A stretch of DNA of 61,908 nt from Candidatus Woesearchaeota archaeon (GTDB lineage: Archaea > Nanobdellota > Nanobdellia > Woesearchaeales > UBA10216): contig JAZDGJ010000047.1 in the NCBI GenBank assembly GCA_043807015.1, positions 1-61,908 of the forward strand. The letters are read 5' to 3'. Positions 26,088 to 55,197 of this stretch are shown one piece after another (positions within the stretch are counted from its first letter, which is position 1; every line of letters starts with the position of its first letter). A program made the translations under genes and the position numbers. Under the pieces are notes generated by a model. That model did no database searches. It worked only from the letters and a program-made list of their open reading frames with translations, and was not told the DNA's origin.

Positions 26088-26191
26088 GTACTTTGGCTTC
26101 TTTTTTATTTCTATATCCTCTTCCTAGAAATTAGGAAACCTCATCTACGAGCTCTTGGGTTCTTTCACAGGCGCAGTCTTGTAGGTGGACA

Positions 26192-27010
26192 TCATAATTC
26201 GTCCCTGCGCTTAAGTATCTCCCGACTTGCTGATATTAAACTCTTTTCAAATTCCTTGATCATGTTATCAGTAAAGTTCTCTAGTTCCCAGCTAGTGTCA
26301 CCAGTAACCAGGTGGGATATAGGGCGATTACTTCCTAAGTAAATATCTGTTAGCTTTTGAGATCCAGAAAGCGCATACCCTGCCAGTTGCTTTGCCAGCA
26401 GGTCTAGATTTAGATCATCTGTTTGGGCGGCGTACCTCACGTCTGGGCCATCGATATATAATACGCGCAATGACTTTTCCAGACGGGGATGCTCATCGCT
26501 AATAGGCAAATTACTAAGAATTACAGGATAGTAAAGTTTGGGAGCTGTTTGATTCATATTTGTTGTTATTTTCTTGGGTCCTTTCCCAAGTGTAGTCTCG
26601 TAAGGTGGACCTGGTAATTTGCGCCTGCGCTTAAGTATCTCCTGACTTGCCGATATTAAACTCTCTCCTAATTCCCTGATCCGTCCTTCATTCAACCTTT
26701 CTACTAGCCCTATACGGTCACCACTAACCACGTGGGTTATAGGGCAAGTTCTTCCCCAGTAAACTGTTAGCTTTGGAGATTCAGGAAGCGCATACTCTGC
26801 CAGTTGCTTTGCCAGCGGGGATAGATCAGGTTTTTGGACACCGTCCATTACATTTGAGCCATCGATATGGCCAACGTCCATTACATTTGAGCCATCGACA
26901 CATAATACGTGCAATTCCTTTCCCAGGGAACGCTCTTCCTTAATAGACCGATACCTAATAGTTACAGGATGGTAAAGTTTGGGAGCTATTTGATCCATAT
27001 TTGTTGTCAT
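26192..27010 (-). CDS. Hypothetical protein made of two tandem ~135-aa repeats
   Basis: The two halves align: TTNMDQIAPKLYHPV..LAKQLAEYALPES..ITHVVSGD..SLISASQEILKRRRKL and TTNMNQTAPKLYYPV..LAKQLAGYALSGS..ISHLVTGD..SLISASREILKRRDEL. Confidence 0.65.
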   Translation of the reverse strand: MTTNMDQIAPKLYHPVTIRYRSIKEERSLGKELHVLCVDGSNVMDVGHIDGSNVMDGVQKPDLSPLAKQLAEYALPESPKLTVYWGRTCPITHVVSGDRIGLVERLNEGRIRELGESLISASQEILKRRRKLPGPPYETTLGKGPKKITTNMNQTAPKLYYPVILSNLPISDEHPRLEKSLRVLYIDGPDVRYAAQTDDLNLDLLAKQLAGYALSGSQKLTDIYLGSNRPISHLVTGDTSWELENFTDNMIKEFEKSLISASREILKRRDEL

Positions 27011-27037
27011 TTGCCAGTAGTATATAAATGTTTTGAT

Positions 27038-28122: not shown

Positions 28123-29391
28123 ATGGGAAAGATAAGTCCAGTATCAGCTAAATACATTGTTCATGCCAACATCCAGATTGACGGCGTAGTGGACAAGCCT
28201 GACGTAATAGGTGCTATATTCGGGCAGACAGAGGGCTTGCTTGGAGCAGAGTTAGAGCTCAGGGAGCTTCAGAGGTCAGGAAGAATCGGCAGGATTGAAG
28301 TGAATACTGACACCAAGGGGGGCAAAACCTCGGGTGTAATAACCGTACCTTCTTCCCTTGACAAGGCAGAAACAGCAATTGTGGCAGCCGCTTTGGAGAT
28401 AATCCAGCGGATCGGTCCATGCAATGCCAACATTAAGGTAGAAAAGATTGAAGATGTTCGTGTTTCTAAGAGGCAGTTTGTCATTACAAGAGCTAAGGAG
28501 CTCTTAAAGAACCTGATGGACAGCGTCATGCCTGACTCGCAGGAACTGGCAGATGAAGTTACATATTCTGTCAGGGTGATGGAAATCCAGCAGTATGGCA
28601 AGGACAGGCTTCCTTCAGGTCCAGGAATTGATGAAAGCGACGAATTAATTGTGGTAGAAGGCAGGGCAGATGTCCTGAACATGTTGAAGCACGGCTTCAA
28701 GAACGTCGTTGGAATGGCGGGAACATCTGTTCCAGAAACCATAATTGAGCTGAGCAAGAAGAAGATAATAACCGCATTTGTCGACGGCGACAGGGGAGGA
28801 GACCTGATTATAAAGGAGCTTCTTGCAGTTGCTGACATAGACTATGTCACAAAAGCTCCTGATGGAAAGGAAGTTGAGGAGCTTGCAAAGAAGGAAATCC
28901 ACAAAGCACTCAGGGCAAGGGTTGCAACAGAGCAGGTGAAGATGGACCTTCCTGCAAGGGAAGATTCTGAAAAGCCCAGATACCCGCATCCTGCTCCCCC
29001 GCAGCAGAGACCAATGCCATTGCAGCAGCCTCAGAGAAGGCCTCCATATCCTGCAGAAAGAATAGACAGGCAGGAAAGGGTTGAACGGGCTCCGGCAATA
29101 ACTGACCATGAAAAAGAGGTCTTCAGCGGCATGTCAGAAGACCTTATTGGCACTCGCGGCGCGTATCTGCTTGATGACAAGCTCAGCATACTCGGCAAAG
29201 TGCCCGTAAGCGAGCTGATGGCTACATTGAAAAATGTGACTAATGTCTACGCAGTAGTCTTTGACGGCTCAATAGACAAGGACCTCGTTATGGTCGCTGA
29301 AAAAGCGAATATCAAGCACCTTGTGGCAATGGACTCGAAAGTGAAACCGCAGGAAACAAGGATTGTGCTATCAACAATAAATGAGCTTTAG
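28123..29391 (+). CDS. dnaG: Archaeal DnaG-type primase (Toprim)
   Basis: ATG at 28123 after GGAGG. The N-terminus AKYIVHANIQIDGVVDKPDVIGAIFGQTEGLLG is typical of archaeal DnaG. Toprim motifs are LIVVEGRADV and FVDGDRGGDLI. Confidence 0.9.
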   Translation: MGKISPVSAKYIVHANIQIDGVVDKPDVIGAIFGQTEGLLGAELELRELQRSGRIGRIEVNTDTKGGKTSGVITVPSSLDKAETAIVAAALEIIQRIGPCNANIKVEKIEDVRVSKRQFVITRAKELLKNLMDSVMPDSQELADEVTYSVRVMEIQQYGKDRLPSGPGIDESDELIVVEGRADVLNMLKHGFKNVVGMAGTSVPETIIELSKKKIITAFVDGDRGGDLIIKELLAVADIDYVTKAPDGKEVEELAKKEIHKALRARVATEQVKMDLPAREDSEKPRYPHPAPPQQRPMPLQQPQRRPPYPAERIDRQERVERAPAITDHEKEVFSGMSEDLIGTRGAYLLDDKLSILGKVPVSELMATLKNVTNVYAVVFDGSIDKDLVMVAEKANIKHLVAMDSKVKPQETRIVLSTINEL

Positions 29392-30014
29392 CTGAAGCTA
29401 ATCACTTCAGCTTTGCTCAGAATTTTCTTTATATAATCCTGCTTATATTCTTCCTGTCTTACTTTTGTCAGCTCATCAGTGAGATTTTTCTCCATCTGGT
29501 CAAAAGTGATGTTGGTGTTATTATAGCGCTCATTATACAGCTTCAGGACGTCATTATATTTTATTATAAACTGCAACGGAAGCTGGGCTTCAACAAGCTT
29601 TTTGACAGTAAGCTCTGCATTTAAAACAGACATAAAATATCCGAGAGTTAGGTTTTTCTGAGCCAGCATTCTCTCAAATTGTGCCCTCGTTAGGTTTCTT
29701 CCCGCAATAAATCTGCTAAATTCCTGCTCTGTTTCGTTGCCCTTCACAATAACACCCTGCTTAGCCGCCTCACTTGCCAGCACAGAACGCGTAATCAGGA
29801 CATTAAGGGCATCCTGCCTTGAAATGCCTGTGCCTATAAGCGCCATACGGCTAATTTCATTTGTAACATCATCTGAATAAATAGCCTGCCCTCCGGCTAT
29901 GGCAACGATTTCCCTTGAAGTAGGCTGCGGCTGCTCGCTAGTCCCATGGTTAAGGATGAAAAAAGCCGCAACTGCCACAAGAATTATTCCTCCAACAAAC
30001 CACTTCCATTCCAT
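29388..30014 (-). CDS. Membrane-anchored SurA-N/PpiD-like chaperone-domain protein (no PPIase domain seen)
   Basis: An N-terminal TM segment is followed by a helical region resembling the SurA N-terminal domain (..VLITRSVLASEAAKQGV..EFSRFIAG..FERMLAQKNLTLGYF..). The assignment is by eye. Confidence 0.4.
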   Translation of the reverse strand: MEWKWFVGGIILVAVAAFFILNHGTSEQPQPTSREIVAIAGGQAIYSDDVTNEISRMALIGTGISRQDALNVLITRSVLASEAAKQGVIVKGNETEQEFSRFIAGRNLTRAQFERMLAQKNLTLGYFMSVLNAELTVKKLVEAQLPLQFIIKYNDVLKLYNERYNNTNITFDQMEKNLTDELTKVRQEEYKQDYIKKILSKAEVISFS

Positions 30015-30055: not shown

Positions 30056-30165
30056 TGCCAGCAAAGTCTGGCTCCCTTAGGTCGGCATAAAGCCGACCGG
30101 TTACGACATCGTTTGGTCCGTGGGGCTTTATGCCCCACTTGAGCGCGTAGACAGAGCGCCTGTCA
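30056..30165. repeat. Copy 1 of a ~110-nt structured repeat element
   Basis: By hand alignment I count about 11 differences from 38391..38499. The four hairpins are GCCAG/CTGGC, GTCGGC-ATAAA-GCCGAC, GTGGGGC-TTTAT-GCCCCAC and GACAG-AGCGC-CTGTC. Confidence 0.8.
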
Positions 30166-30200
30166 AAACCTTTAAATAGCTTCTTAGCAAGAAAATAAAT

Positions 30201-31463
30201 ATGGGAAAAAAGAGGGCAAGTTCTCAGATAGACTGGATAATAAGCCTCGCCATTTTCCTGCTCTACCTTGCCTGGTTTTTTGTCTACGTAAGGAACCTTG
30301 TACAGCCATCGCAGAGCATTGACACGCTTCTTTCAGACATGAGGGATGCATTTGTCAGGAACTCCACCTGGAGCGTCAGCTTAATGCCGCTGTTTGTCAG
30401 GACCAATATGAGCGGAACAGAGCCGATAATTACTGACTTCAACCTCGGCTGGAAAAACTTTTCCTTTAGTGATAATGCCTATTTTGAATTAAGGAGTAAC
30501 AAGCTCTTCTTCATCAAGAACCTGATTTCCGGAGTTAACACCTATTACCTTGCGCAGTCTGATGACTCGTATTCACTCCCTGAAACAAGCTTTGAGTTGG
30601 ATGCATCTGCAGATATTGCTACAATGAACTCTGAAGCATTCACCGCAGAGATTGAGAACTCGCTAATCTCAAAAATAGGCTACGACGGGAGCACAGGGCT
30701 TACAAGCCTTCAGATAAGCCTGAATAGTGAGCCTGTAGACCCGTTGTCCGCAGTTAAGAAAACAAATATTACCTCAATGCTGGCTGAATACAGGTTTGAA
30801 ACCCAGTCTTTTAACCAGTCAGCTTTTATCATTTCAGGCTTTCCGCGGGTAATCAGCTATGTGTGGCTTAGCAACGCCCAAAACAATGTCACCATAAGCA
30901 TGACGCTGGCAAATTACACCCACTATTATGTCGCAGAAGATGACGCAGGAGGCATTGCTTATAATTCTTCAATATGCCGGACAAGAGAAACAAGGTATAT
31001 GGACTTTTACAACGCATACAACGGAGTTACGATAATAACATCTGACATTGCAAAAATCAGGAACTGCCAAGATGAAGACGGGCTGCAGGTGACGCTGGAG
31101 ATTCCTGCTAAGAACGAAACAAGGTATGACCTCATATTCCACGAGGGAGGCTACAATTCAACGATTAAATACATTTCAAATTATGCCGCTGAATTTGGAA
31201 TGGCGCAAAACCTGACAGGCATATCCTTGGATGCAGTCGGGAGAATAAACTCCACAGACTATGGAGTGCTGAAAACGCAGTGGCAGTATCCTGAAAAAAG
31301 GGACTTTAACTTCATCCTTTCAAACAGCACAGACGCAACAATCTACGATTATTCGCCTGTGAGCCCTGGAAATGAAAACGTCTTTGCAATGCAGGAAAAG
31401 CTGTATGCACTGGACAAGAACGGAAACAGGGAGCTCTACAAGCTGAGGCTGCTGGGATGGTAG
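30201..31463 (+). CDS. Membrane-anchored extracellular protein (possible class III/pilin-like signal)
   Basis: MGKKRASSQIDWIISLAIFLLYLAWFFVY has a basic stretch, a small residue, an acidic residue at about +5 and then a hydrophobic helix. TATA CCTTTAAATAGC lies about 25 nt upstream. Confidence 0.6.
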   Translation: MGKKRASSQIDWIISLAIFLLYLAWFFVYVRNLVQPSQSIDTLLSDMRDAFVRNSTWSVSLMPLFVRTNMSGTEPIITDFNLGWKNFSFSDNAYFELRSNKLFFIKNLISGVNTYYLAQSDDSYSLPETSFELDASADIATMNSEAFTAEIENSLISKIGYDGSTGLTSLQISLNSEPVDPLSAVKKTNITSMLAEYRFETQSFNQSAFIISGFPRVISYVWLSNAQNNVTISMTLANYTHYYVAEDDAGGIAYNSSICRTRETRYMDFYNAYNGVTIITSDIAKIRNCQDEDGLQVTLEIPAKNETRYDLIFHEGGYNSTIKYISNYAAEFGMAQNLTGISLDAVGRINSTDYGVLKTQWQYPEKRDFNFILSNSTDATIYDYSPVSPGNENVFAMQEKLYALDKNGNRELYKLRLLGW

Positions 31464-34234: not shown

Positions 34235-34264
34235 TTTTTATAGGAATCGCAGAAAGTGATTGTT

Positions 34265-35686
34265 ATGGATGTAAAGAAAATCAATGACTACACCTGGGAA
34301 ATTGCAAAGCAGGCTGGCATGAAAGTTCCTGCAAGAATTTATGCTACTGAGAAGCTTCTTGAGAAGATAAAGCTTGACAGGACTTTGCAGCAGGCAATGA
34401 ATGTTGCGCATTTGAAGGGAATCCTCAAGTATTCTTATGTTATGCCTGATGCCCACGAGGGTTATGGTTTTCCAATCGGAGGCGTCGCGGCATTTGACGT
34501 AAATGAAGGCATAATATCTCCAGGAGGGATTGGCTATGACATAAATTGTGGAGTTCGCTTATTGAGAACAGATTTCAAGGCAGAGCAAATCACTTCTGCA
34601 AAACACAATCTCATCCAAGAGATGTTCAACAGTGTGCCATCTGGAGTTGGAAAAGGCAGCATTACAAAGCTTTCCAAGGAAGAGCTGCAGGAATTGCTTG
34701 TCAAAGGCTCCCAATGGGCGCTTGAAAGAGGCTATGGCACAAAAGACGACCTTGAAACTACAGAAGAAGGCGGCAGGATGAAAGAATCAGACCCGTCCGT
34801 GGTTTCTGAAAGGTCGCTAGCAAGGGGCAAGCCCCAGATCGGCACTTTGGGCGCAGGCAATCATTTTCTTGAAATCCAAAAGGTGGATGCAATCTACGAC
34901 GAGAAAACAGCAAGGCTTTTCGGAATAACAGAGCCCGGGCAGGTAACTGTCATGATACACTGCGGCAGCCGCGGCTTTGGGCATCAGGTTGCAACTGACT
35001 TTATTGAGGAGATGGAAAAGAAATACGGCTACAAGGACTTGCCGGACAGGGAGCTTGTAAACTCGCCAATACAATCAGAGCTTGGGCAGAAATACTTCAA
35101 AGCAATGGCTTGCGGGGTAAACTATGCTTTCGCCAACAGGCAGATGATTGTGCACTGGGTCAGGGAATCCTTCAAAAAAATTATGGGCACTGATGATGGC
35201 ATGAAGCAGGTCTATGATGTCTGCCACAACATTGCAAAAATCGAGAGGCATAATGTTGATGGCGAGCAGAGGACAGTCTGCGTGCACAGAAAAGGCGCAA
35301 CAAGGGCTTTTGGTCCTGGCAAGGAAGGAAATCCTGAAAGATACATGCAGACAGGGCACCCGGTTATTATACCTGGCAGCATGGGAACTGCAAGTTATGT
35401 TCTTACAGGCACAAAACAGGCAGAGGAATTAAGCTTTTCAAGCACTGCGCACGGCGCAGGAAGGACAATGAGCCGCGCAGCCGCAATCCACCAATTCAGG
35501 GGAGAGGGCATTGCCCGCGAGCTGTTAAGCCGCGGCATAGAAGTAAAGTCCGCAAGCTGGCTTTCATTGGCAGAGGAAGCGCCATCTGCATACAAAGACA
35601 TAGATGAAGTAATTAAAGCCTCAGAAGGCGCAGAAATCGCAAAGCCAGTCATAAGATTAGTACCCCTTGGCGTTGTAAAGGGCTGA
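34265..35686 (+). CDS. rtcB: RNA 3'-phosphate ligase RtcB
   Basis: MPDAHEGYGFPIGGV, GYDINCGVR, GAGNHFLE, HCGSRGFGHQ and SSTAHGAGR. Confidence 0.95.
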   Translation: MDVKKINDYTWEIAKQAGMKVPARIYATEKLLEKIKLDRTLQQAMNVAHLKGILKYSYVMPDAHEGYGFPIGGVAAFDVNEGIISPGGIGYDINCGVRLLRTDFKAEQITSAKHNLIQEMFNSVPSGVGKGSITKLSKEELQELLVKGSQWALERGYGTKDDLETTEEGGRMKESDPSVVSERSLARGKPQIGTLGAGNHFLEIQKVDAIYDEKTARLFGITEPGQVTVMIHCGSRGFGHQVATDFIEEMEKKYGYKDLPDRELVNSPIQSELGQKYFKAMACGVNYAFANRQMIVHWVRESFKKIMGTDDGMKQVYDVCHNIAKIERHNVDGEQRTVCVHRKGATRAFGPGKEGNPERYMQTGHPVIIPGSMGTASYVLTGTKQAEELSFSSTAHGAGRTMSRAAAIHQFRGEGIARELLSRGIEVKSASWLSLAEEAPSAYKDIDEVIKASEGAEIAKPVIRLVPLGVVKG

Positions 35687-37432: not shown

Positions 37433-37792
37433 TCACCTTGTAAATATCTCGCAAAGTTTCTCTTGGACCTGCTTGATTTTTGTTTCTTTGAGTTTTCCTG
37501 CTCGGTAGTTGACTATTGAAATATCTGCAGTAAAGAGCCTGCTCGGCCTGATGAAGCTGTCCATTTTTAATTTTCCCTGACGAAAATCATTTTCGCTTAG
37601 AAGTATCGCATCTTGGTCATCCCTCTGTTGGCTTGTTATTTGGCAGAGTATTAAGTCATTGCCCTTCAGAGTCGCTGCAACCAAACTTGGTCTGTTCTTG
37701 GATGAGCTTAAGTCTGAGAAAGGGAAAGGGATTACAACAATGTCGCCTTTCACAAATCTTTCCACGCCTCTTCGTCCTCTTTTGAATTCCAA
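37433..37792 (-). CDS. mazF: MazF/PemK-family toxin
   Basis: KGDIVVIPFPFSDLSSSKNRPSLV is the canonical PemK/MazF N-terminal block. Confidence 0.85.
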   Translation of the reverse strand: MEFKRGRRGVERFVKGDIVVIPFPFSDLSSSKNRPSLVAATLKGNDLILCQITSQQRDDQDAILLSENDFRQGKLKMDSFIRPSRLFTADISIVNYRAGKLKETKIKQVQEKLCEIFTR

Positions 37793-38004
37793 TCCTTGGC
37801 AAGAACCTTTTCACTTGCCAGTGCAGTAAACAGCTTCTCGCTTATCTGTTTCATCGGTCTTAATTCAATCCTGTCTTGATATACTATGATGCCTATTTTT
37901 GAGCCGTTTTTTAGTCCTGCCTTCACCCTTGCTGCCTGCGGAATGCAAATCTGCCCTTTTTCCGTTATTGTTGCTGTCTTTATTTCCATAATCTCCTTTT
38001 GCAT
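37750..38004 (-). CDS. AbrB/SpoVT-fold antitoxin
   Basis: ATITEKGQICIPQAARVKAGLKNGSKI is a SpoVT/AbrB swapped-hairpin motif. It overlaps the toxin gene. Confidence 0.8.
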   Translation of the reverse strand: MQKEIMEIKTATITEKGQICIPQAARVKAGLKNGSKIGIIVYQDRIELRPMKQISEKLFTALASEKVLAKDWNSKEDEEAWKDL

Positions 38005-38025
38005 CTTCTTACCTCCTGCTTCTTA

Positions 38026-38043
38026 TAAGTAAGATAAGTAAGA
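38026..38043. promoter_or_regulatory. Tandem 9-nt direct repeat between the TATA box and the antitoxin start (probable operator)
   Basis: TAAGTAAGA occurs twice in tandem, flanked by the inverted CTTCTTA...TAAGAAG. TATA-like GTATTTATATTTT lies at 38046-38058. Confidence 0.5.
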
Positions 38044-38324
38044 AGTATTTATATTTTACTAATAAAAACTCATCCTTCCCCGTCTCGGCTGGAAAAAGAA
38101 TTCCTCAAAGTGATTCTCGCTTTTCCCCTGGCTTTTCCACTTTATCGCGTCCTGCTGGCAGATGCTTATCATGCTCCCCCTCCAACTCCCGCAGTATTGA
38201 GGCTGAGGCGCTTGACTTGTTCGTAAAAGAGCTTGCTTATGGTTTCATTGGTCAGGTCCATTTTCATCACCATACTCTTGAATGCCTGATTCCTTTAAAT
38301 AGCCCGCTCAGCTGGTTGTCCAGT

Positions 38325-38570
38325 GGCTAGTGCTAACCTGTCCGAGGTGTTCGTGGCGCCCTGAGCTATGCTCAGGTTGATGTTTCCCGCTGCCAGCAAA
38401 GTCTGGCTCCCTTAGGTCGGCATAAAGCCGACCAGTTACGACGTTGTAGGTTCGCGGGACTTTATGTCCCGCTTAAGCGCGTAGACAGAGCGCCTGTCAC
38501 GGGAAAGCAACAAGTCCCTTGGACCGCCACGAACAAGGTTAAGTAGCTCTGAGATGGCACGCTAGTGCCG
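38325..38570 (+). ncRNA. Candidate ~245-nt structured ncRNA of undetermined family, containing repeat copy 2 (38391..38499)
   Basis: TATA CCTTTAAATAGC (38292-38303) lies about 25 nt upstream. A long-range helix pairs GTTCGTGGCG (38349-58) with CGCCACGAAC (38525-34). A hairpin CCTGAGC-TAT-GCTCAGG lies at 38360-76. The four element hairpins follow, then a 3' hairpin GGCAC-GCTA-GTGCC and TTATTT. No credible ORF is present. Confidence 0.55.
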
Positions 38571-38606
38571 TAACTTATTTAAACCGCCCTTATTTTGCCC
38601 TTGCCA

Positions 38607-39287
38607 ATGAAACTCAGCATAATAATGCCTGCTTATAATGAAGAGAAGGATATTCTGAAAATCATAAAGAAAGTGCAGGCTGTAAAGCTGCCGATGCAGA
38701 AGGAGATTATCATAGTTGATGATGGCAGCAGGGACAAGACAAGAGAGATTCTTTCTGGAGTAAAGGGCAAAGAGATAAGGGTAATCCTGCATGAAAAGAA
38801 CAAGGGCAAGGGCGCGGCGATAAGGACCGGCTTGTCAAAGGCAACCGGCGACATAATCCTGATACAGGATGCTGATGACGAATATGACCCAAACGAATAC
38901 CCCAAGCTTATAGAGCCCTTGCTCAATAGCGCAATGGTTGTATACGGCTCAAGATTCTACGGAAGGCACATACCCAGGTATAGGTTCTACTACCTTGGCA
39001 ACAAAGTCCTTACAGCAGCCACAAACCTCCTGTACGGCGGAAACATAAGCGACATGGAAACCTGCTACAAAGTGTTCAAAAGGGAAGCGATAAAAGGCAT
39101 GGTGCTCAGGGCAAGAAGGTTTGACTTTGAGCCTGAAATAACTGCCAAGTTCCTCAAGAGGGGTTACAAGATTGTTGAGGTGCCAATAAGCTACAAGAGC
39201 CGCTCGTTCCAAGAAGGCAAGAAGATAAAGTGGACTGACGGCATAATAGCGCTTTGGTATCTTATAAAATACAGGTTTGTTGACTGA
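38607..39287 (+). CDS. Family-2 glycosyltransferase (dolichyl-phosphate sugar synthase-like)
   Basis: LSIIMPAYNEE, IIIVDDGSRDKT and IQDADDEYDP. ATG at 38607; the track start at 38595 is a TTG. Confidence 0.85.
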   Translation: MKLSIIMPAYNEEKDILKIIKKVQAVKLPMQKEIIIVDDGSRDKTREILSGVKGKEIRVILHEKNKGKGAAIRTGLSKATGDIILIQDADDEYDPNEYPKLIEPLLNSAMVVYGSRFYGRHIPRYRFYYLGNKVLTAATNLLYGGNISDMETCYKVFKREAIKGMVLRARRFDFEPEITAKFLKRGYKIVEVPISYKSRSFQEGKKIKWTDGIIALWYLIKYRFVD

Positions 39288-40928: not shown

Positions 40929-40990
40929 TTTGCATCAAAAACAACCATTAGAAGCCCAACTATTTAAATCTTTCTATTTTTTACCACTTA

Positions 40991-41272
40991 TTAGTAGTTA
41001 CTTTCTTGTAGAAGGTCCTTGTAGTAAAGGTTTCCCAGCCTAATACGCTCCTGCAAAGGCTGATTTTCAGTCATATAATCCGGCGCCGTTGCAAGCCCAA
41101 CCGCAACTTTTACAGCCCAGCGGGTATTTTTAATTTGAGAATTTCCCGCATACCCTCCCCTCTCATCAATCTCTTTTTGAACGAGAAAATTTATCGTCTC
41201 TGTTATTTTATCCTCTGGTATTCCAAAATATAGGCTGGCACCTTTTGCAAGGTCATCAATGGTTTCAGGCAT
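40991..41272 (-). CDS. Hypothetical protein (first gene of the trio)
   Basis: 93-aa ORF. TATA-like GATAGTTATATT lies upstream on the minus strand. Confidence 0.45.
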   Translation of the reverse strand: MPETIDDLAKGASLYFGIPEDKITETINFLVQKEIDERGGYAGNSQIKNTRWAVKVAVGLATAPDYMTENQPLQERIRLGNLYYKDLLQESNY

Positions 41273-41320: not shown

Positions 41321-42391
41321 TCAAAACTCCGTCAGCTTCTTCTCGCCTTCAAAGCTGATTATTGTTGTTGCGCCTTCTGAGCCGCCGGCAATCTTCTTAG
41401 TGCTTATGAATTTGTCCTCCTCTAATTTGGCAATTCTTCGCTGGAATGTCTTATATGCTGTTTTGCCGCCCTTGTCCTGGAATATCCTGTATATCTCTCC
41501 AATCCTCTTGCCAGAGTTCTCCTTTATGACATCAAGAATCATCTTTGACTCGTCTTCCAAGGTGGCTTTGTCTTTTACAGAGAATTCGTCAAGCTTTGAG
41601 ACAGCCTTTTCCACGTCAGCCATCGCTATCTTCTTAGAAGAGCGCTCCTCAGCAGCATTGCCTGCCTCTTTCATCAGATAAAGCCCTGAGCGTATGTCCT
41701 GCATCTCTGATGTCTTGCGGGCAATTGCCTCAAAGGCGTCATCTTCCCACACGCCAGAAACAAAGGCAATCTCCCTCCTCTGCAGGAGTATTCCCTTTGC
41801 TTCTGTGTAATTGTATGGCTTGAACTCAAGCACTTCTGCAGTTAATCTTGATTTAATCCTTGGGTCAAGCTCTGCAATCCACTCTTTCTTGTTTGAGATG
41901 AGTATTATTGACTTCTTGTAAATCTCCTCAAGAAGATTATAGACAAAGTCAAGCTCCTCCATCTTGTCAATCTCGTCAAACACAAAAACAGCCGCCTGCT
42001 CATTGAGCATTTTCTTGACGATGTCAAAAAGCTCGTCAGTCCTTTTGTTTTGGGTGAACTTGTAGCCCAAAACAGCGGAAATCTCAAGCAGAATCTTGAA
42101 GCTGGTGTTCTTGTGCCAGCAGTTTACATAAATCGGCACTATTTCGTCTGTTTCATCCTTAAGCTCGTCAAGAAGATGCCTGCACGCAACAGTCTTGCCA
42201 ACGCCGGAAGGTCCATAAACTACAACGTTCATGCCCTCCCTGCCCTGGAACAAAGGCCTCATGGCAGTGGCTATCTGTCGCATCTCCTTCTCGCGGTAGG
42301 GCACTATCTTCGGCTGGTGGTCATAATTCAACGCCTCAGCATCCTTGAAAAGGCTCTCTCCACCAGACAGCATATCCCTGAAAAACGCCAT
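41321..42391 (-). CDS. cdc6: Orc1/Cdc6 AAA+ replication initiator
   Basis: Walker A VVYGPSGVGKTV, Walker B VFVFDEID and a C-terminal winged helix (..YKTFQRRIAKLEEDKFIS..). Confidence 0.9.
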   Translation of the reverse strand: MAFFRDMLSGGESLFKDAEALNYDHQPKIVPYREKEMRQIATAMRPLFQGREGMNVVVYGPSGVGKTVACRHLLDELKDETDEIVPIYVNCWHKNTSFKILLEISAVLGYKFTQNKRTDELFDIVKKMLNEQAAVFVFDEIDKMEELDFVYNLLEEIYKKSIILISNKKEWIAELDPRIKSRLTAEVLEFKPYNYTEAKGILLQRREIAFVSGVWEDDAFEAIARKTSEMQDIRSGLYLMKEAGNAAEERSSKKIAMADVEKAVSKLDEFSVKDKATLEDESKMILDVIKENSGKRIGEIYRIFQDKGGKTAYKTFQRRIAKLEEDKFISTKKIAGGSEGATTIISFEGEKKLTEF

Positions 42392-43199: not shown

Positions 43200-43877
43200 G
43201 TGAAAGCTAACGCTTCTCAGATAAAGGTTGCAGTTGACGCTGTTGTATTCAGCGTTGTCAATGAAAGCCTTAAGGTGCTTCTGATACGGCGCAAGAAGGC
43301 TCCTTTCAAAGGAATGTATGCGCTTCCCGGCGGGTTTGTCGAGCCACATGAAAACCTTGAAGAGGCTGTCAAAAGGGAGCTGGCAGAGGAAACCAATGTA
43401 AAGAATGTCTTCCTGCAGCAGCTTGGCGCCTATGGCGAACTGGAGAGAGATCCAAGGGGAAGGATTGTCAGCATTGCATTCCTTGCTTTCATAAGCCCTG
43501 AGCAAAAATTAGGCTCGACCAAAGATGCTGCCGGCGCAGAATGGCATTCAGCAGATGACCTGGATGACCTTGCGTTTGACCACAGGAAGATTATAGAAGA
43601 CTCCCTCAGGCAGATCAGGTATGAGATACAGACAACGAACATAGCATTCCAGATTCTCCCGACTGAATTCACACTCAGCGAGCTCCAGCACCTTTACGAG
43701 CTCGTCCTTAAAATGCCCCTTGACAAGAGGAATTTCAGGAGGCGCATAAAAGAATTGGATATCCTCAAGAAAATCAGCGGCGCAAAGATGGAAGGCGCGC
43801 ACAGGCCTGCGCAGCTCTACAGCTTCAGAGAGAGGGAGTACAAGCCGCTGAAGGACAGGATACACATCTTCACTTAG
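43200..43877 (+). CDS. nrtR: NrtR-like regulator (Nudix domain plus C-terminal wHTH)
   Basis: Nudix box GGFVEPHENLEEAVKRELAEETNV. The C-terminal block FTLSELQHLYELVL...DKRNFRRRI...PAQLYSF is typical of the NrtR wHTH. The start is a GTG. Confidence 0.75.
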   Translation: MKANASQIKVAVDAVVFSVVNESLKVLLIRRKKAPFKGMYALPGGFVEPHENLEEAVKRELAEETNVKNVFLQQLGAYGELERDPRGRIVSIAFLAFISPEQKLGSTKDAAGAEWHSADDLDDLAFDHRKIIEDSLRQIRYEIQTTNIAFQILPTEFTLSELQHLYELVLKMPLDKRNFRRRIKELDILKKISGAKMEGAHRPAQLYSFREREYKPLKDRIHIFT

Positions 43878-43949: not shown

Positions 43950-43989
43950 AGCTCGCATAGTTGAAAATTATGCGGGCTTTTTTAAGCAG

Positions 43990-44013
43990 GTAGTAAGTGT
44001 ATAAAATACAATA
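43990..44013. promoter_or_regulatory. Candidate NrtR operator 2, overlapping a TATA box
   Basis: GTAGTAAGTGTATAAAATACAATA. The first 15 nt are identical to box 3, and GTATAAAATAC fits GT-N7-AC. Confidence 0.5.
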
Positions 44014-44028
44014 AGTAGGTGAGGATTG

Positions 44029-44337: not shown

Positions 44338-44348
44338 TTTTTTAAAAA

Positions 44349-44372
44349 GTAGTAAGTGTATAAGTGACAATA
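44349..44372. promoter_or_regulatory. Candidate NrtR operator 3, upstream of pncB
   Basis: GTAGTAAGTGTATAAGTGACAATA. GTATAAGTGAC fits GT-N7-AC. Confidence 0.5.
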
Positions 44373-44385
44373 ATGGTGATGCAAA

Positions 44386-45747
44386 ATGAAAGCTGCTGCT
44401 GAAATGGAAAAGAAAACGATGCTTACTGACCTATACCAGCTTACGATGAACGCAGCTTACTTTGACAACAACAAGGACGAAACAGCAACTTTTGACCTTT
44501 TCATCAGGAAATTGCCTCTGGACTGGGGTTATTTCATAGCAAACGGCGTTGAGGATGCCGTTGATTATGCGACAAACATCGGCTTCACCGAGGAAGACTT
44601 GGATTACTTGAGCAGAGAGGGGCTTTTCAAGCAGGAATTTCTGGAACAGCTTCGCGGCTTCAGATTTGAGGGCGATATCTATGCTGTGAAAGAAGGCACT
44701 CCCATATTTCCAAATGAGCCTGTTCTCAGAGTCACTGCAAAAAGAACCCAGGCGCAGTTCCTAGAGACAGCGCTTCTCAACATCATCAACTTCCAGACAA
44801 TGATTGCCACAAAGGCAAACAGGGTTGTAAATGCTGCCCAGGGAGCCAAAGTAGTGGACTTCGGGCTTAGGAGGGCGCAGGGAGAGGATGCTGCAATGAC
44901 TGGAGCAAGGGCAGCCTACATTGGCGGAGCTGTGGCTACAAGCAATGTTAAGGCAGGCATGGAATACGGCATCCCCATCTCAGGAACCCATGCGCACAGC
45001 TTTGTGATGAGCTTCCCAACAGAGCTTGAGGCGTTCAGGGCTTATGTCAAGACGTTCCCAAAGAATGGCACGTTGTTGATTGACACTTATGATACCTTGC
45101 AGGGAGCAAGAAACGCAGCCATAATTGCCAAAGAACTTGAGGCAAACGGCGGAAGGCTTGGCGCTGTGAGGCTTGACTCTGGCGACCTTGCAGATCTTTC
45201 GATAAGAGTCAGGAAAATTCTGGATGAGCAGGGACTGCAGTATGTCAAGATAATGGCAAGCAACGACCTCAACGAATACAAGATTGAAGAACTCATAAAA
45301 CAGGGCGCAAAAATAGACGGTTACGGCGTCGGCACAGAGATGATTACTGCAAAGCCTGTGGCTGCAATTCCAGGTGTCTACAAGCTTGTGGCAGATGCTG
45401 GCGGTGCCAAGATAAAGCTCTCCGAGGGCAAGCAAACACTCCCCGGCTTGAAGCAGGTTTACAGGCTCACTGGGCTTGATGGAAAATTTGCTGGCGATAC
45501 AATAGCAATTGAAGGGGAACAAGCAGAAGGAACTCCATTGCTTGAACTGGTTATTAGAAACGGCGCGCGAGTAAATGCTAGAAGACCACTTGCAGCAATA
45601 CGCCAGTATGCGCTTGACAATGTTGCAAAGCTCCCAGACTGCCTCAAAGATGTGAGGGTGAAGCAGCAATACAATGTTGCTGAATCCACGGGATTAAAGC
45701 ACCTTGTCGAGCAGCTTACAATGAAATATTCGGCAGCGCTTGTTTAA
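44386..45747 (+). CDS. pncB: Nicotinate phosphoribosyltransferase
   Basis: MLTDLYQLTMNAAYF, FDLFIRK, NIINFQTMIATKA and VVDFGLRRAQG. Confidence 0.9.
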   Translation: MKAAAEMEKKTMLTDLYQLTMNAAYFDNNKDETATFDLFIRKLPLDWGYFIANGVEDAVDYATNIGFTEEDLDYLSREGLFKQEFLEQLRGFRFEGDIYAVKEGTPIFPNEPVLRVTAKRTQAQFLETALLNIINFQTMIATKANRVVNAAQGAKVVDFGLRRAQGEDAAMTGARAAYIGGAVATSNVKAGMEYGIPISGTHAHSFVMSFPTELEAFRAYVKTFPKNGTLLIDTYDTLQGARNAAIIAKELEANGGRLGAVRLDSGDLADLSIRVRKILDEQGLQYVKIMASNDLNEYKIEELIKQGAKIDGYGVGTEMITAKPVAAIPGVYKLVADAGGAKIKLSEGKQTLPGLKQVYRLTGLDGKFAGDTIAIEGEQAEGTPLLELVIRNGARVNARRPLAAIRQYALDNVAKLPDCLKDVRVKQQYNVAESTGLKHLVEQLTMKYSAALV

Positions 45748-54006: not shown

Positions 54007-55124
54007 TGCCTTGCGATATGCTCAATAATCCGCTCAAGCGCAGCCTGCTCTCCTCTGTCTGAATCAAGCTCTCTGTCAATTGTATCGCCAAGCAGGGGCA
54101 TATCAGAAACAAAGCCAGCAAATCCGAATTCTATTCTAAGAATTCCCGCATACCTCCTTCTTCCCTGGTTGACAGAATCCACAGTTTCCCTTGTTTCCAT
54201 CTCTACGCAGATGCACCCGTTGTCAGCGCCTCTCTTAAGCTGTTCAAAAGTTTGGTTGACGACCGCATTTACATTCAGGTTGAGACCTTCAAAACCATGA
54301 CCTGTGGTCAGTACGTTATGCATCGGATAGACAAACACTCTGCCGTCCTCAAGGTCAGTGTCATCAACTATGCCCGTGGGGAATACAAGGTCATGCCTTT
54401 GCATATCCTCGCGGAGTCCTCCTACCCTGCCAAACATAAACATTTCAATGCGCGGCTTGTCGCCTCTCTCCTTCGCTATTGCCGCATACTCTATAAGCAT
54501 CTTGTCAATGAGTATTCCCGCCTGGTCGGAAAAGACATACCCGAGATTCGCCACTTTCCTCCCATTGACATCTACAATCTGGGAAGGGAGGTATTCATCA
54601 GGCCTTTCTTCAAGAACCTTAGCCTGCTTTGCAACTGCATTCAAAGGACCGAATATTACCCGAGTGATGTCGCTCATTGGTTCTTGTTCAAAAAGCTTCT
54701 TGACAAAGTCATAGGCAAAGTTGTCATAGGCGTGGTTTGTTTTTCTTGCCTTCCCCTCAACTTCCAGCGAGCGGAAAGTTGTGTTGCGGTTGCTTGCCTG
54801 CAAATATGCATCAATCATCTGCTCGTATCTTCTTCTCCTGCCGAAGCCGCTGTACTGCGGAATGTGAAGCCCGCCATGCTGATAATAGAGCGGCTCGCGA
54901 CCGTTGTTCTGCAAAACCCTGTCAAAGCCCCCGCCAACAGATGCAAGCATATGCTCGAGCTTTGACGGCAGCACGCCATTGTGGAGATTTATTGAAGTAA
55001 CATCTTCAGGCGAAACATTCTTACCGAAAAGCCTGGTCTCTGTATATGTCACTATTGCTTCCGGGCTGAATATTGGAGTGCTCATATGTGGCGTTGTAGG
55101 ATTCCAATATTTAAATCTTTCCAT
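54003..55124 (-). CDS. Hypothetical protein, possibly of the PNP/UDP-phosphorylase-like fold
   Basis: FGRVGGL...DLVFPTGIVD... and ICVEMETRE resemble the Gly-loop and EME blocks of the nucleoside phosphorylase/nucleosidase family. The call is weak and by eye only. Confidence 0.35.
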   Translation of the reverse strand: MERFKYWNPTTPHMSTPIFSPEAIVTYTETRLFGKNVSPEDVTSINLHNGVLPSKLEHMLASVGGGFDRVLQNNGREPLYYQHGGLHIPQYSGFGRRRRYEQMIDAYLQASNRNTTFRSLEVEGKARKTNHAYDNFAYDFVKKLFEQEPMSDITRVIFGPLNAVAKQAKVLEERPDEYLPSQIVDVNGRKVANLGYVFSDQAGILIDKMLIEYAAIAKERGDKPRIEMFMFGRVGGLREDMQRHDLVFPTGIVDDTDLEDGRVFVYPMHNVLTTGHGFEGLNLNVNAVVNQTFEQLKRGADNGCICVEMETRETVDSVNQGRRRYAGILRIEFGFAGFVSDMPLLGDTIDRELDSDRGEQAALERIIEHIARH

Positions 55125-55197
55125 TTGTTACTACTAATAAGTAATTATAACTTGTTTTATTCCGATGGCGTTTGAATGAAATTGCTAGAAACGGTGG

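Follow-up and report, generated by a model that had tools for sequence, protein, structure and literature searches.

Among the closest described systems are the small mobile repeats of the archaeon Haloquadratum walsbyi. HqIRS42, HqIRS43 and HqIRS55 measure 103-122 bp, possess termini that are imperfectly inverted, and generate no target duplication (PMC3119063). Haloquadratum repeats insert into palindromes near the ends of PATEs and IS605-type elements (PMC3119063). As "switch repeats", they may be represented in another strain by a different element, or by one in opposite orientation, at the same position (PMC3119063, Text S1). Their mobilisation was called enigmatic (PMC3119063). In a second class, the REPINs, the ends are conserved and the spacer varies; compensated changes are common, and the repeats can fold either as a clover or as a long hairpin (PMC3116915).

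Here we describe element E, found twice in the window, by which we mean the whole stretch of 61,908 nt that was analysed, and which stems from a Woesearchaeota-like (DPANN) archaeon. DPANN archaea have small, streamlined genomes. Judged by its features, E can be classed as a DPANN representative of the small, structured, non-autonomous mobile repeats, a class that is already known. Its closest published counterpart in behaviour appears to be the Haloquadratum repeats, which, together with bacterial REPINs, it most resembles in its features. We conclude that E is probably a small palindromic DNA repeat of about 110 bp that is mobile but non-autonomous.

Anatomy and symmetry of element E

Copy 1 of E (30056-30165, 110 nt) and copy 2 (38391-38499, 109 nt, located at the tip of an outer palindromic element, O) are in direct orientation, both on the plus strand. 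The initial annotation had described two copies of about 110 nt with identical outer parts and about 11 differences in the middle. This description was correct: the copies differ by 10 substitutions and one 1-nt indel, all mid-element, and the left 43 nt and right 24 nt show no differences. With a G+C content of 0.56-0.58, E lies above the window (0.46), and the only ORFs crossing it are short and spurious.

The element is a series of four hairpins in the order H1, H2, a spacer of about 21 nt, H3 and H4. In copy 1, H1 (30057-30072) reads GCCAG-CAAAGT-CTGGC and H2 (30080-30098) GGTCGGC-ATAAA-GCCGACC; the variable spacer (30099-30119) is followed by H3 (30120-30138; GTGGGGC-TTTAT-GCCCCAC, a 7-bp stem with the loop TTTAT) and H4 (30150-30164; GACAG-AGCGC-CTGTC). 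The hairpins of copy 2 are found at 38392-38407 (H1), 38415-38433 (H2), 38454-38472 (H3; GCGGGAC-TTTAT-GTCCCGC) and 38484-38498 (H4).

The arms of E are inverted around the less conserved spacer, and the right half is approximately an imperfect reverse complement of the left. At the end of each arm is a G(C/A)CAG hairpin, next to a 7-bp hairpin whose loop is ATAAA. In the window, the termini form the short inverted repeats TGCCAG...CTGTCA, and the similarity between the arms spans about 40 nt. The pattern CTTTATGNCNNNC-N6-10-AGMCAG-N5-6-CTGKCA matched all four window arms, the left ones on the minus strand and the right ones on the plus strand, with 0 chance matches expected. A covariance model of the plus strand also matched the minus strand of each copy (34-37 bits). 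Neither an unfiltered search with this model nor a fuzzy search for hairpin units revealed a further copy of E in the window.

This symmetry bears on a proposed RNA function. In line with the initial annotation, which had pointed to selection on structure and a possible kissing interaction, E could be a structured RNA (a leader acting in cis, or a small RNA) whose kissing 7-bp hairpins control envelope-related neighbours, an interpretation that we consider unlikely. It is true that the loops AUAAA and UUUAU are complementary in both window copies. However, this complementarity arises because of the two-fold symmetry of E and is thus a product of the inverted arms; moreover, the loop is not conserved in other copies and derivatives (GTAAA, ATGAA). 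A kissing helix of five A-U pairs would also be weak. Searched across the whole window at gathering scores, Rfam gave no match; over 37900-38700, nothing relevant came up at E values of up to 10, and a scan for tRNA and tmRNA found none. We conclude that E is probably not a promoter-linked regulatory RNA with kissing loops.

Several specific structures were considered from the sequence and discarded. AAAGUCUGGCUCCC resembles AAAGUCCGGGCUCC of the RNase P CR-I region, but there is no P4 partner strand, and the sequence is present in two mobile copies. At the junctions of copy 2 the helix is uninterrupted, with a single bulged C and without 3-nt bulges, unlike an archaeal bulge-helix-bulge intron. 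Box and K-turn motifs at the spacing of C/D or H/ACA guide RNAs were absent. Integron attC sites did not fit either, as E lacks GTTRRRY core sites and does not form one long imperfect palindrome. The repeat pair of a diversity-generating retroelement was rejected because the differences are not adenine-specific, the copies are non-coding and there is no reverse transcriptase.

Every hairpin of E is also dyad-symmetric. E could therefore be a double-stranded DNA module of palindromic protein sites (for example GCCAG-N6-CTGGC and GGTCGGC-N5-GCCGACC), acting near promoters as an operator or insulator array for a dimeric protein. The symmetric changes between copies retain the dyad, as such sites would require, and copy 1, the copy found outside the window and two derivatives in relatives (all described below) end 4-10 nt from a TATA box. 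A homodimer, however, would select for one half-site, whereas the H3 stems GTGGGGC and GCGGGAC differ at two of seven positions around an unchanged loop, which fits pairing better. Considering in addition the promoter and relative data given below, we regard an array of this kind as very unlikely.

Hairpin stability and compensated changes

We then compared the stability of the hairpins with that of shuffled sequences. The folding energy of each copy was better than that of 200 of 200 dinucleotide shuffles on both strands (z -3.6 to -4.5), and the hairpins were stable under DNA energy parameters as well. Between copies 1 and 2, H3 carries two fully compensated pairs, in agreement with the initial annotation, which had reported two double substitutions preserving this hairpin. 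Including the third copy, found outside the window, 98.8% of the cells were paired, compared to 27-36% when partners were slid by 1-3 columns. Three pairs, located in two hairpins, were changed on both sides; 17 of 500 shuffles reached the values observed. When the 18 variable columns were placed randomly, both sides of at least three pairs were struck in 1.3% of the trials, a figure obtained before requiring complementarity or co-occurrence within one copy. With three copies, these data are suggestive and not conclusive that the paired changes preserve the structure of the hairpins and not their sequence. An alternative fold, in which the left arm pairs with the right arm, is available to the third copy.

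The stable fold and the compensated pairs would be expected of a functional RNA. It should be noted, though, that compensated changes cannot separate RNA from single-stranded DNA, nor one strand from the other. In addition, template switching in palindromes yields perfect stems and multi-base compensated changes in a single event and without selection (PMC8794818). The earlier claim of selection on structure holds insofar as the hairpins have been kept; the selection itself can be mimicked by template switching.

The same process could account for a completely immobile E, whose copies would have arisen by two or three segmental duplications or gene conversions and whose palindromes and compensated changes by replicative template switching in the absence of selection. 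The very low copy number would suit this explanation, as would nested hairpins with perfect stems, such as one of 35 nt in a relative (see below), which look like products of single events. On the other hand, the ends of E are identical and its middle varies, as expected if the ends are recognised. Taken together with the boundaries and the occupied and empty sites reported in the following sections, this makes an immobile E quite unlikely.

A third copy outside the window

The initial annotation had proposed a search for more copies, and one further full copy was found outside this contig. It is located on a JGI metagenome contig (L004:536-646) and is about 91% identical to copy 2; the full copies range from 109 to 111 nt. 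Scanning JGI metagenome contigs with the arm pattern gave 11 loci, one of which, L004, was a true copy. An 18-mer searched in 185,579 GTDB species genomes gave only two chance matches, inside bacterial coding genes. Viral contigs scanned with an exact 20-mer and the arm pattern contained no E, BLASTN of plasmids and phages returned nothing related to it, and six-frame peptides of E, searched against 5.8 billion proteins for spurious ORFs over further copies, had no match. In total, we found three full copies of E and two mosaic derivatives. High copy number, the usual mark of a mobile repeat, was not seen, with two copies in 62 kb and one in public scans, and this counts against mobility.

In the L004 copy, H1 reads GACAG...CTGTC. 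This is a third fully compensated pair (C-G to A-T), and as a result the termini are perfect there, TGACAG...CTGTCA. The loops of H2 and H4 are GTAAA and AGCCC, respectively. According to the initial annotation, additional copies with broken hairpins would speak against a structural role. The L004 copy adds the compensated pair in H1 and one uncompensated change in H3. The latter, the sole uncompensated change, leaves an A-C mismatch if the plus strand folds and a G-T wobble if the minus strand does, which counts against the proposed RNA. Conversely, the A to G change in the L004 loop is, on the plus strand, still compatible with a G-U pair to the partner loop.

The surroundings of this copy differ from those in the window. 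Its first three bases are the stop codon of the upstream gene, and it would be transcribed as the 3' end of that gene, as an RNA would require; it ends 10 nt before the TATA box of the gene for ribosomal protein L44e. All three full copies are oriented like the next downstream gene, a further point in favour of an RNA, yet the genes next to them (for a membrane protein, a GT2 and L44e) have nothing to do with one another. The link to envelope genes stated in the initial annotation is thus not supported, and because the third copy precedes the L44e gene, no link of E to gene function emerges. The boundaries of E are identical and sharp in three unrelated contexts in at least two organisms, an argument against an immobile sequence. 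The flanks have no target motif in common, which counts against mobility: the plus strand reads GAGT, CCGC and CGCT on the left, the minus strand GTTT, GTTT and CCCG.

Insertion at the site of copy 1, and a relative with a different insert

Copy 1 lies between the divergent core promoters of the genes at 29388-30014 (minus strand) and 30201-31463 (plus strand). It has no evident promoter of its own, in conflict with the proposed RNA. We compared this locus with that of a relative (L001, Logan SRR27458548) whose proteins are 85% identical to those of the window. There, the spacing between the SurA-like gene and the gene for the 420-residue protein is 78 nt, compared to 186 nt in the window, and E is absent. 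The junction in the relative, ...TTATAAATCTTGTGGAGTA|AAAACCTTTAAATAG..., reads TGGAGTA|AAAACCTTTAAATAG; in the window, ...TTATAAATCTTATGGAGT[TGCCAGC...GCGCCTGTC]AAAACCTTTAAATAG..., TGGAGT is followed by 109-110 nt and then by AAAACCTTTAAATAG. Both TATA boxes and the rest of the flanks are conserved, without any duplicated bases. Because the relative retains the same intergenic region and promoter without the 110 bases, copy 1 is, from the sequence comparison, an insertion without target-site duplication. TA or other target duplications were rejected from the sequence. In a more distant contig (P0004, 67% identity), the intergenic region at this place also measures only 75 nt.

A clean empty site with conserved flanks is not what an immobile E predicts. 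Likewise, a regulatory RNA or a needed protein site is difficult to reconcile with close relatives that keep the genes and promoters of the orthologous loci and lack E. The position of E relative to the orthologous genes is not kept: it is absent from L001 and the P0004 contig, and replaced or absent in four further relatives (L015, L016, L017 and L018).

One of these, L017, stems from the same sample as L016 and shows 86% protein identity. Between the flanks of copy 1 it carries a different hairpin insert of 87 nt, which on the minus strand corresponds to H1 split by a two-hairpin insertion of 54 nt. The junction of this insert, CTGGCA|AAACC, falls on the same nucleotide as that of the window, CTGTCA|AAACC.

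Copy 2 and the outer insert O

Copy 2 lies within a stretch of 590 nt devoid of ORFs of at least 40 residues, at the tip of the outer palindromic insert O (38334-38541). The left arm of O (38334-38390, plus strand) consists of TAACCT...GTTCGTGGCG, a local hairpin CCTGAGC-TAT-GCTCAGG, and TTGATGTTTCCCG. It pairs with the right arm (38500-38541, plus strand), which consists of CGGGAAAGCAACAA, a local hairpin GTCC-CTT-GGAC, and CGCCACGAAC...AGGTTA; the inner stem is formed by TTGATGTTTCCCG/CGGGAAAGCAACAA. Folded together as single-stranded DNA, O and E reach -57.6 kcal/mol (z -8.5). Copy 2 is the only one of the three full copies inserted in a palindrome; copy 1 and the L004 copy are not. That just one in three is so placed counts against the mobile reading.

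O is absent from this spot in L015, L016 and L018. These relatives have in common with the window a left block, comprising two small ORFs on the minus strand, a TATA box and ...CCAGTGGCTAGTG, and a right block extending from GTAACTTATTTAAA... to the ATG of the GT2 gene. Between the two blocks, each relative that we examined is different. L018 (77% identity) is essentially empty, L015 contains about 350 nt of unrelated DNA, and L016 (86% identity) has the left half of E on the minus strand, without the right arm (26.8 bits, E value 3e-6 with the covariance model). In this half-element, H1 is identical, a 35-nt hairpin with a perfect stem is nested between H1 and H2, the loop of H2 is ATGAA, and GGTTACG follows. 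The hairpin partner needed for a kissing interaction is therefore missing, at odds with the proposed RNA.

The same positions in related genomes are thus empty, filled with E, or occupied by rearranged or inverted mosaics of hairpin units, and the occurrence of these units in either orientation at the same sites argues against immobility. In their flanking DNA, L016 and L017 are nearer to the window than L001 and L015 are, and the sites of both copies may therefore have been occupied in a common ancestor and rearranged since then; the alternative is repeated insertion. The differing inserts at the same site could also represent in-place rearrangement of one ancestral insertion, which counts against mobility.

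An 8-nt direct repeat, GCTAGTGC, is present at 38326-38333 and 38561-38568, perhaps as a target duplication of O. L015 shares the DNA that separates O from the second GCTAGTGC, and this DNA consequently looks ancestral.

Promoters and neighbouring genes

The initial annotation had placed both copies upstream of an identical TATA box. The 12-mer CCTTTAAATAGC does occur twice, at 30169, directly after copy 1, and at 38292; the latter position, however, is 87 nt upstream of copy 2, and the statement fails for this copy. Because the box at 30169 is also present in L001, which has no E, it is, as judged from the alignment, the native promoter of the gene at 30201 and lies outside the element. At 38292, the distance between the start of TTTAAATA in the box and the ATG at 38273 is 21 nt; this ATG belongs to a pair of small, overlapping ORFs (34 and 37 residues) on the minus strand. 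The pair is conserved at the protein level in L015, L016 and L018, and so is the box in these relatives, which lack a full E. Hence, this box probably serves the small-ORF pair on the opposite strand. If it also fired rightward, copy 2 could be transcribed, which would favour an RNA. For the GT2 gene, a separate TATA-like box, TTATTTAAA, is located about 25 nt upstream of the ATG. Copy 2 is 77 nt away from this promoter and within another palindrome, an unexpected place for a protein site that acts near promoters. We therefore interpret the 12-mer common to both loci as a strong promoter consensus that does not form part of E.

Homologues of the 420-residue protein (30201-31463) and of GT2 (38607-39287) are annotated as Woesearchaeota or Nanoarchaeota. 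The genes of the window are ordinary chromosomal ones (among them FtsZ, RtcB, archease, Sua5, Orc1/Cdc6, SerRS and NAD-metabolism), and there is also a Toprim-domain protein, possibly a DnaG-type primase. A Pfam scan of about 55 window ORFs detected no transposase, integrase or reverse transcriptase, and no intermediate of excision or transposition was observed; both points count against the mobile reading.

Comparison with known mobile repeats

Like the small mobile repeats of Haloquadratum, E is archaeal and non-coding, is of similar size, has inverted termini and no target duplication, and shows switching (L017, L016). No DNA related to E was found among plasmids, phages, viral contigs and GTDB genomes. 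The Haloquadratum repeats prefer insertion into palindromes, a location found for one of three copies of E. They reach tens of copies per genome, compared to two in 62 kb. Their hosts, Halobacteria, belong to a different phylum than the Woesearchaeota-like host of E. The interior of four hairpins and the compensated changes are features of E that have not been described for the Haloquadratum repeats.

With REPINs and BIMEs, E shares two inverted palindromic units about 100 nt apart, a less conserved spacer, compensated changes in the hairpins, alternative folds, an extragenic location, and hairpin units in mosaic arrays whose make-up at a given locus varies from strain to strain. REPINs, however, are bacterial, number hundreds per genome, and have as their defining feature a linked single-copy gene for RAYT (REP-associated tyrosine transposase) with repeats on either side; no such gene is present in the 62-kb window. 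Furthermore, an arm of E consists of two separate hairpins, that of a REPIN of one REP.

Classical MITEs (Sulfolobus SM, Correia, ERIC) are, like E, small and non-coding, with inverted termini, insertion polymorphism and intergenic or promoter-near positions. E differs from them in that its internal hairpins and not just its terminal repeats are conserved, and in that its termini are untraceable to any transposon. As it has no target-site duplication, we did not classify it as a classical MITE.

PATEs, palindrome-associated transposable elements derived from IS200/IS605, resemble E in having palindromes near their ends, no target duplication and no coding capacity, and terminal-only archaeal PATEs as short as 52 bp have been described (PMC3119063). 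E might accordingly be such a terminal-only remnant of an IS200/IS605 element and might encode an omega-RNA-type guide for a TnpB elsewhere. Yet PATEs lack inverted termini, and their palindromes are direct on one strand, whereas the arms of E are inverted. They also depend on one particular target oligonucleotide at their left end; E has no shared flank, and no conserved oligonucleotide of 4-6 nt precedes it. Pfam scans detected no Y1 transposase, tnpA or tnpB within the 62-kb window. With its inverted arms and no fixed target, E was not assigned to the PATEs, and we consider such a remnant highly improbable. The outer element O, by contrast, may be of the PATE kind.

For E itself, we favour a mobile repeat that would be mobilised in trans, the enzyme being provided by a gene at another place in the genome. 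This enzyme would recognise the folded arms on single-stranded DNA and could be an HUH tyrosine transposase of the IS200/IS605 or RAYT type, or another hairpin-directed recombinase. Recognition of a folded single strand would explain the conserved structure, the missing target duplications and the palindrome that was struck. We put forward a specific single-strand mechanism of the HUH type only as a tentative possibility. Effects on neighbouring genes would be incidental and without host function: copy 1 pushes the divergent promoters 110 bp apart, and the L004 copy supplies a stop codon.

More doubtful still is the wider proposal that E and the related hairpin units form a structure-dependent mobile repeat system of DPANN archaea that uses single-stranded DNA and targets palindromes and promoter-proximal sites. 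If true, this system would be an archaeal counterpart of REPIN-RAYT, or it would use the same unexplained mechanism as the 110-bp repeats of Haloquadratum. Hairpin repeats that enter, leave and reshuffle DNA close to promoters would generate rapid variation in regulation and among strains, and they would be convenient for marking strains. The matched sites, in their empty, filled and switched states, are concrete substrates for finding the mobilising enzyme. For RNA discovery, E suggests caution, in that compensated changes and complementary loops can stem from palindromic mobile DNA and are not proof of a functional RNA.

Hairpin units elsewhere in the window

Perfect hairpins with a stem of at least 8 bp are frequent in the window, with 15 observed compared to 4.2 in shuffles. 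Four of the 15 form an intergenic array at 1256-1372, which has no overall similarity to E (12.4 bits, E value 0.08 with the covariance model of E). We searched for shared hairpin units by local alignment, with p values obtained by shuffling. The array and O have the unit CTGAGC...GCTCAG in common (p <0.005), and the array and the L017 insert share two consecutive hairpins, CAGAAA[T/C]GC...GC[A/G]TTTCTG (p 0.005). As far as the alignments indicate, the array thus probably belongs, as a further mosaic, to the same set of hairpin units. With units common to E, O, the L017 insert and the array, E looks like the best-defined composite of units assembled in mosaic fashion. The unit shared by the array and the L017 insert itself contains a compensated pair.

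Additional hairpin structures

Besides the 110-nt four-hairpin repeat E, the window carries an array of four consecutive perfect hairpins at positions 1256-1372, which lies in intergenic DNA after the T-rich end of the gene at 171-1187. The stems of these hairpins are 8-14 bp long and the loops comprise 3-6 nt. Two of the units were found again in the 87-nt hairpin insert that occupies the site of the first E copy in the related contig L017, and one was found in outer insert O, the palindrome that carries the second E copy at its tip. The array is probably a further mosaic hairpin element.

In L016, where the inverted left half of E is present at the site of the second copy, unit H1 of this half-element is separated from unit H2 by a nested 35-nt hairpin (L016:1477-1511) with a perfect 12-bp stem, TAAATTGTCGGG...CCCGACAATTTA. 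This hairpin looks like the product of a single insertion event or of a template switch. Insert O itself is flanked by an 8-nt direct repeat, GCTAGTGC (38326-38333 and 38561-38568), which encloses O together with 19 nt of ancestral-looking DNA. The repeat might have arisen as a target duplication when O inserted, or simply by chance.

A small-protein operon and an adjacent islet

Two overlapping small ORFs on the minus strand (38059-38273) encode 34 residues (MVMKMDLTNETISKLFYEQVKRLSL...) and 37 residues (MISICQQDAIKWKSQGK...MSFY). The protein sequences of both are conserved in L015, L016, and L018, and the first ATG is preceded by a TATA box at a distance of 21 nt. The pair is a predicted, hitherto unannotated small-protein operon. 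Between it and Sua5, a MazE/MazF-like toxin-antitoxin pair is encoded on the minus strand (37433-38004). Among the relatives, L015 and L018 have Sua5 directly at this position and L016 has a CN-hydrolase gene there, indicating that the stretch is a variable islet.

Duplicated and polymorphic genes

An ORF on the minus strand (26192-27010, within 26183-27012), for which no Pfam match was found, contains an internal tandem duplication of approximately 420-440 nt with 76-89% identity (repeat families D2, D4, and D7). Compared to the window, the L017 orthologue of the gene for the 420-residue membrane protein, which lies downstream of the first E copy, has lost approximately 125 nt close to the 5' end (L017:440-510); the predicted protein has a later start and a length of 359 residues. 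The L017 gene could be a pseudogene or could encode a variant with a truncated N-terminus. The RtcB gene (34256-35686; 476 residues) is uninterrupted in the window, whereas relatives show LAGLIDADG homing-endonuclease ORFs alongside shorter RtcB calls (L001:4126-6295), which suggests an intein or homing-endonuclease polymorphism.

Repeats near regulatory and replication genes

Two copies of a 36-nt repeat (43979-44014 and 44338-44373; 81% identity) lie between the gene for an NrtR-like Nudix/winged-helix regulator (43200-43877) and the NAPRTase gene (44386-45747). Both copies are candidate operators at which NrtR would control the subsequent NAD gene cluster. Since an Orc1/Cdc6 homologue is encoded on the minus strand at 41321-42391, a replication origin may be nearby. 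Just downstream of this gene region lies one copy (40961-41000) of a 40-nt AT-rich sequence, TATTTAAATCTTTC.ATTT.TTAC...; the other, at 55108-55147, is 85% identical to it.
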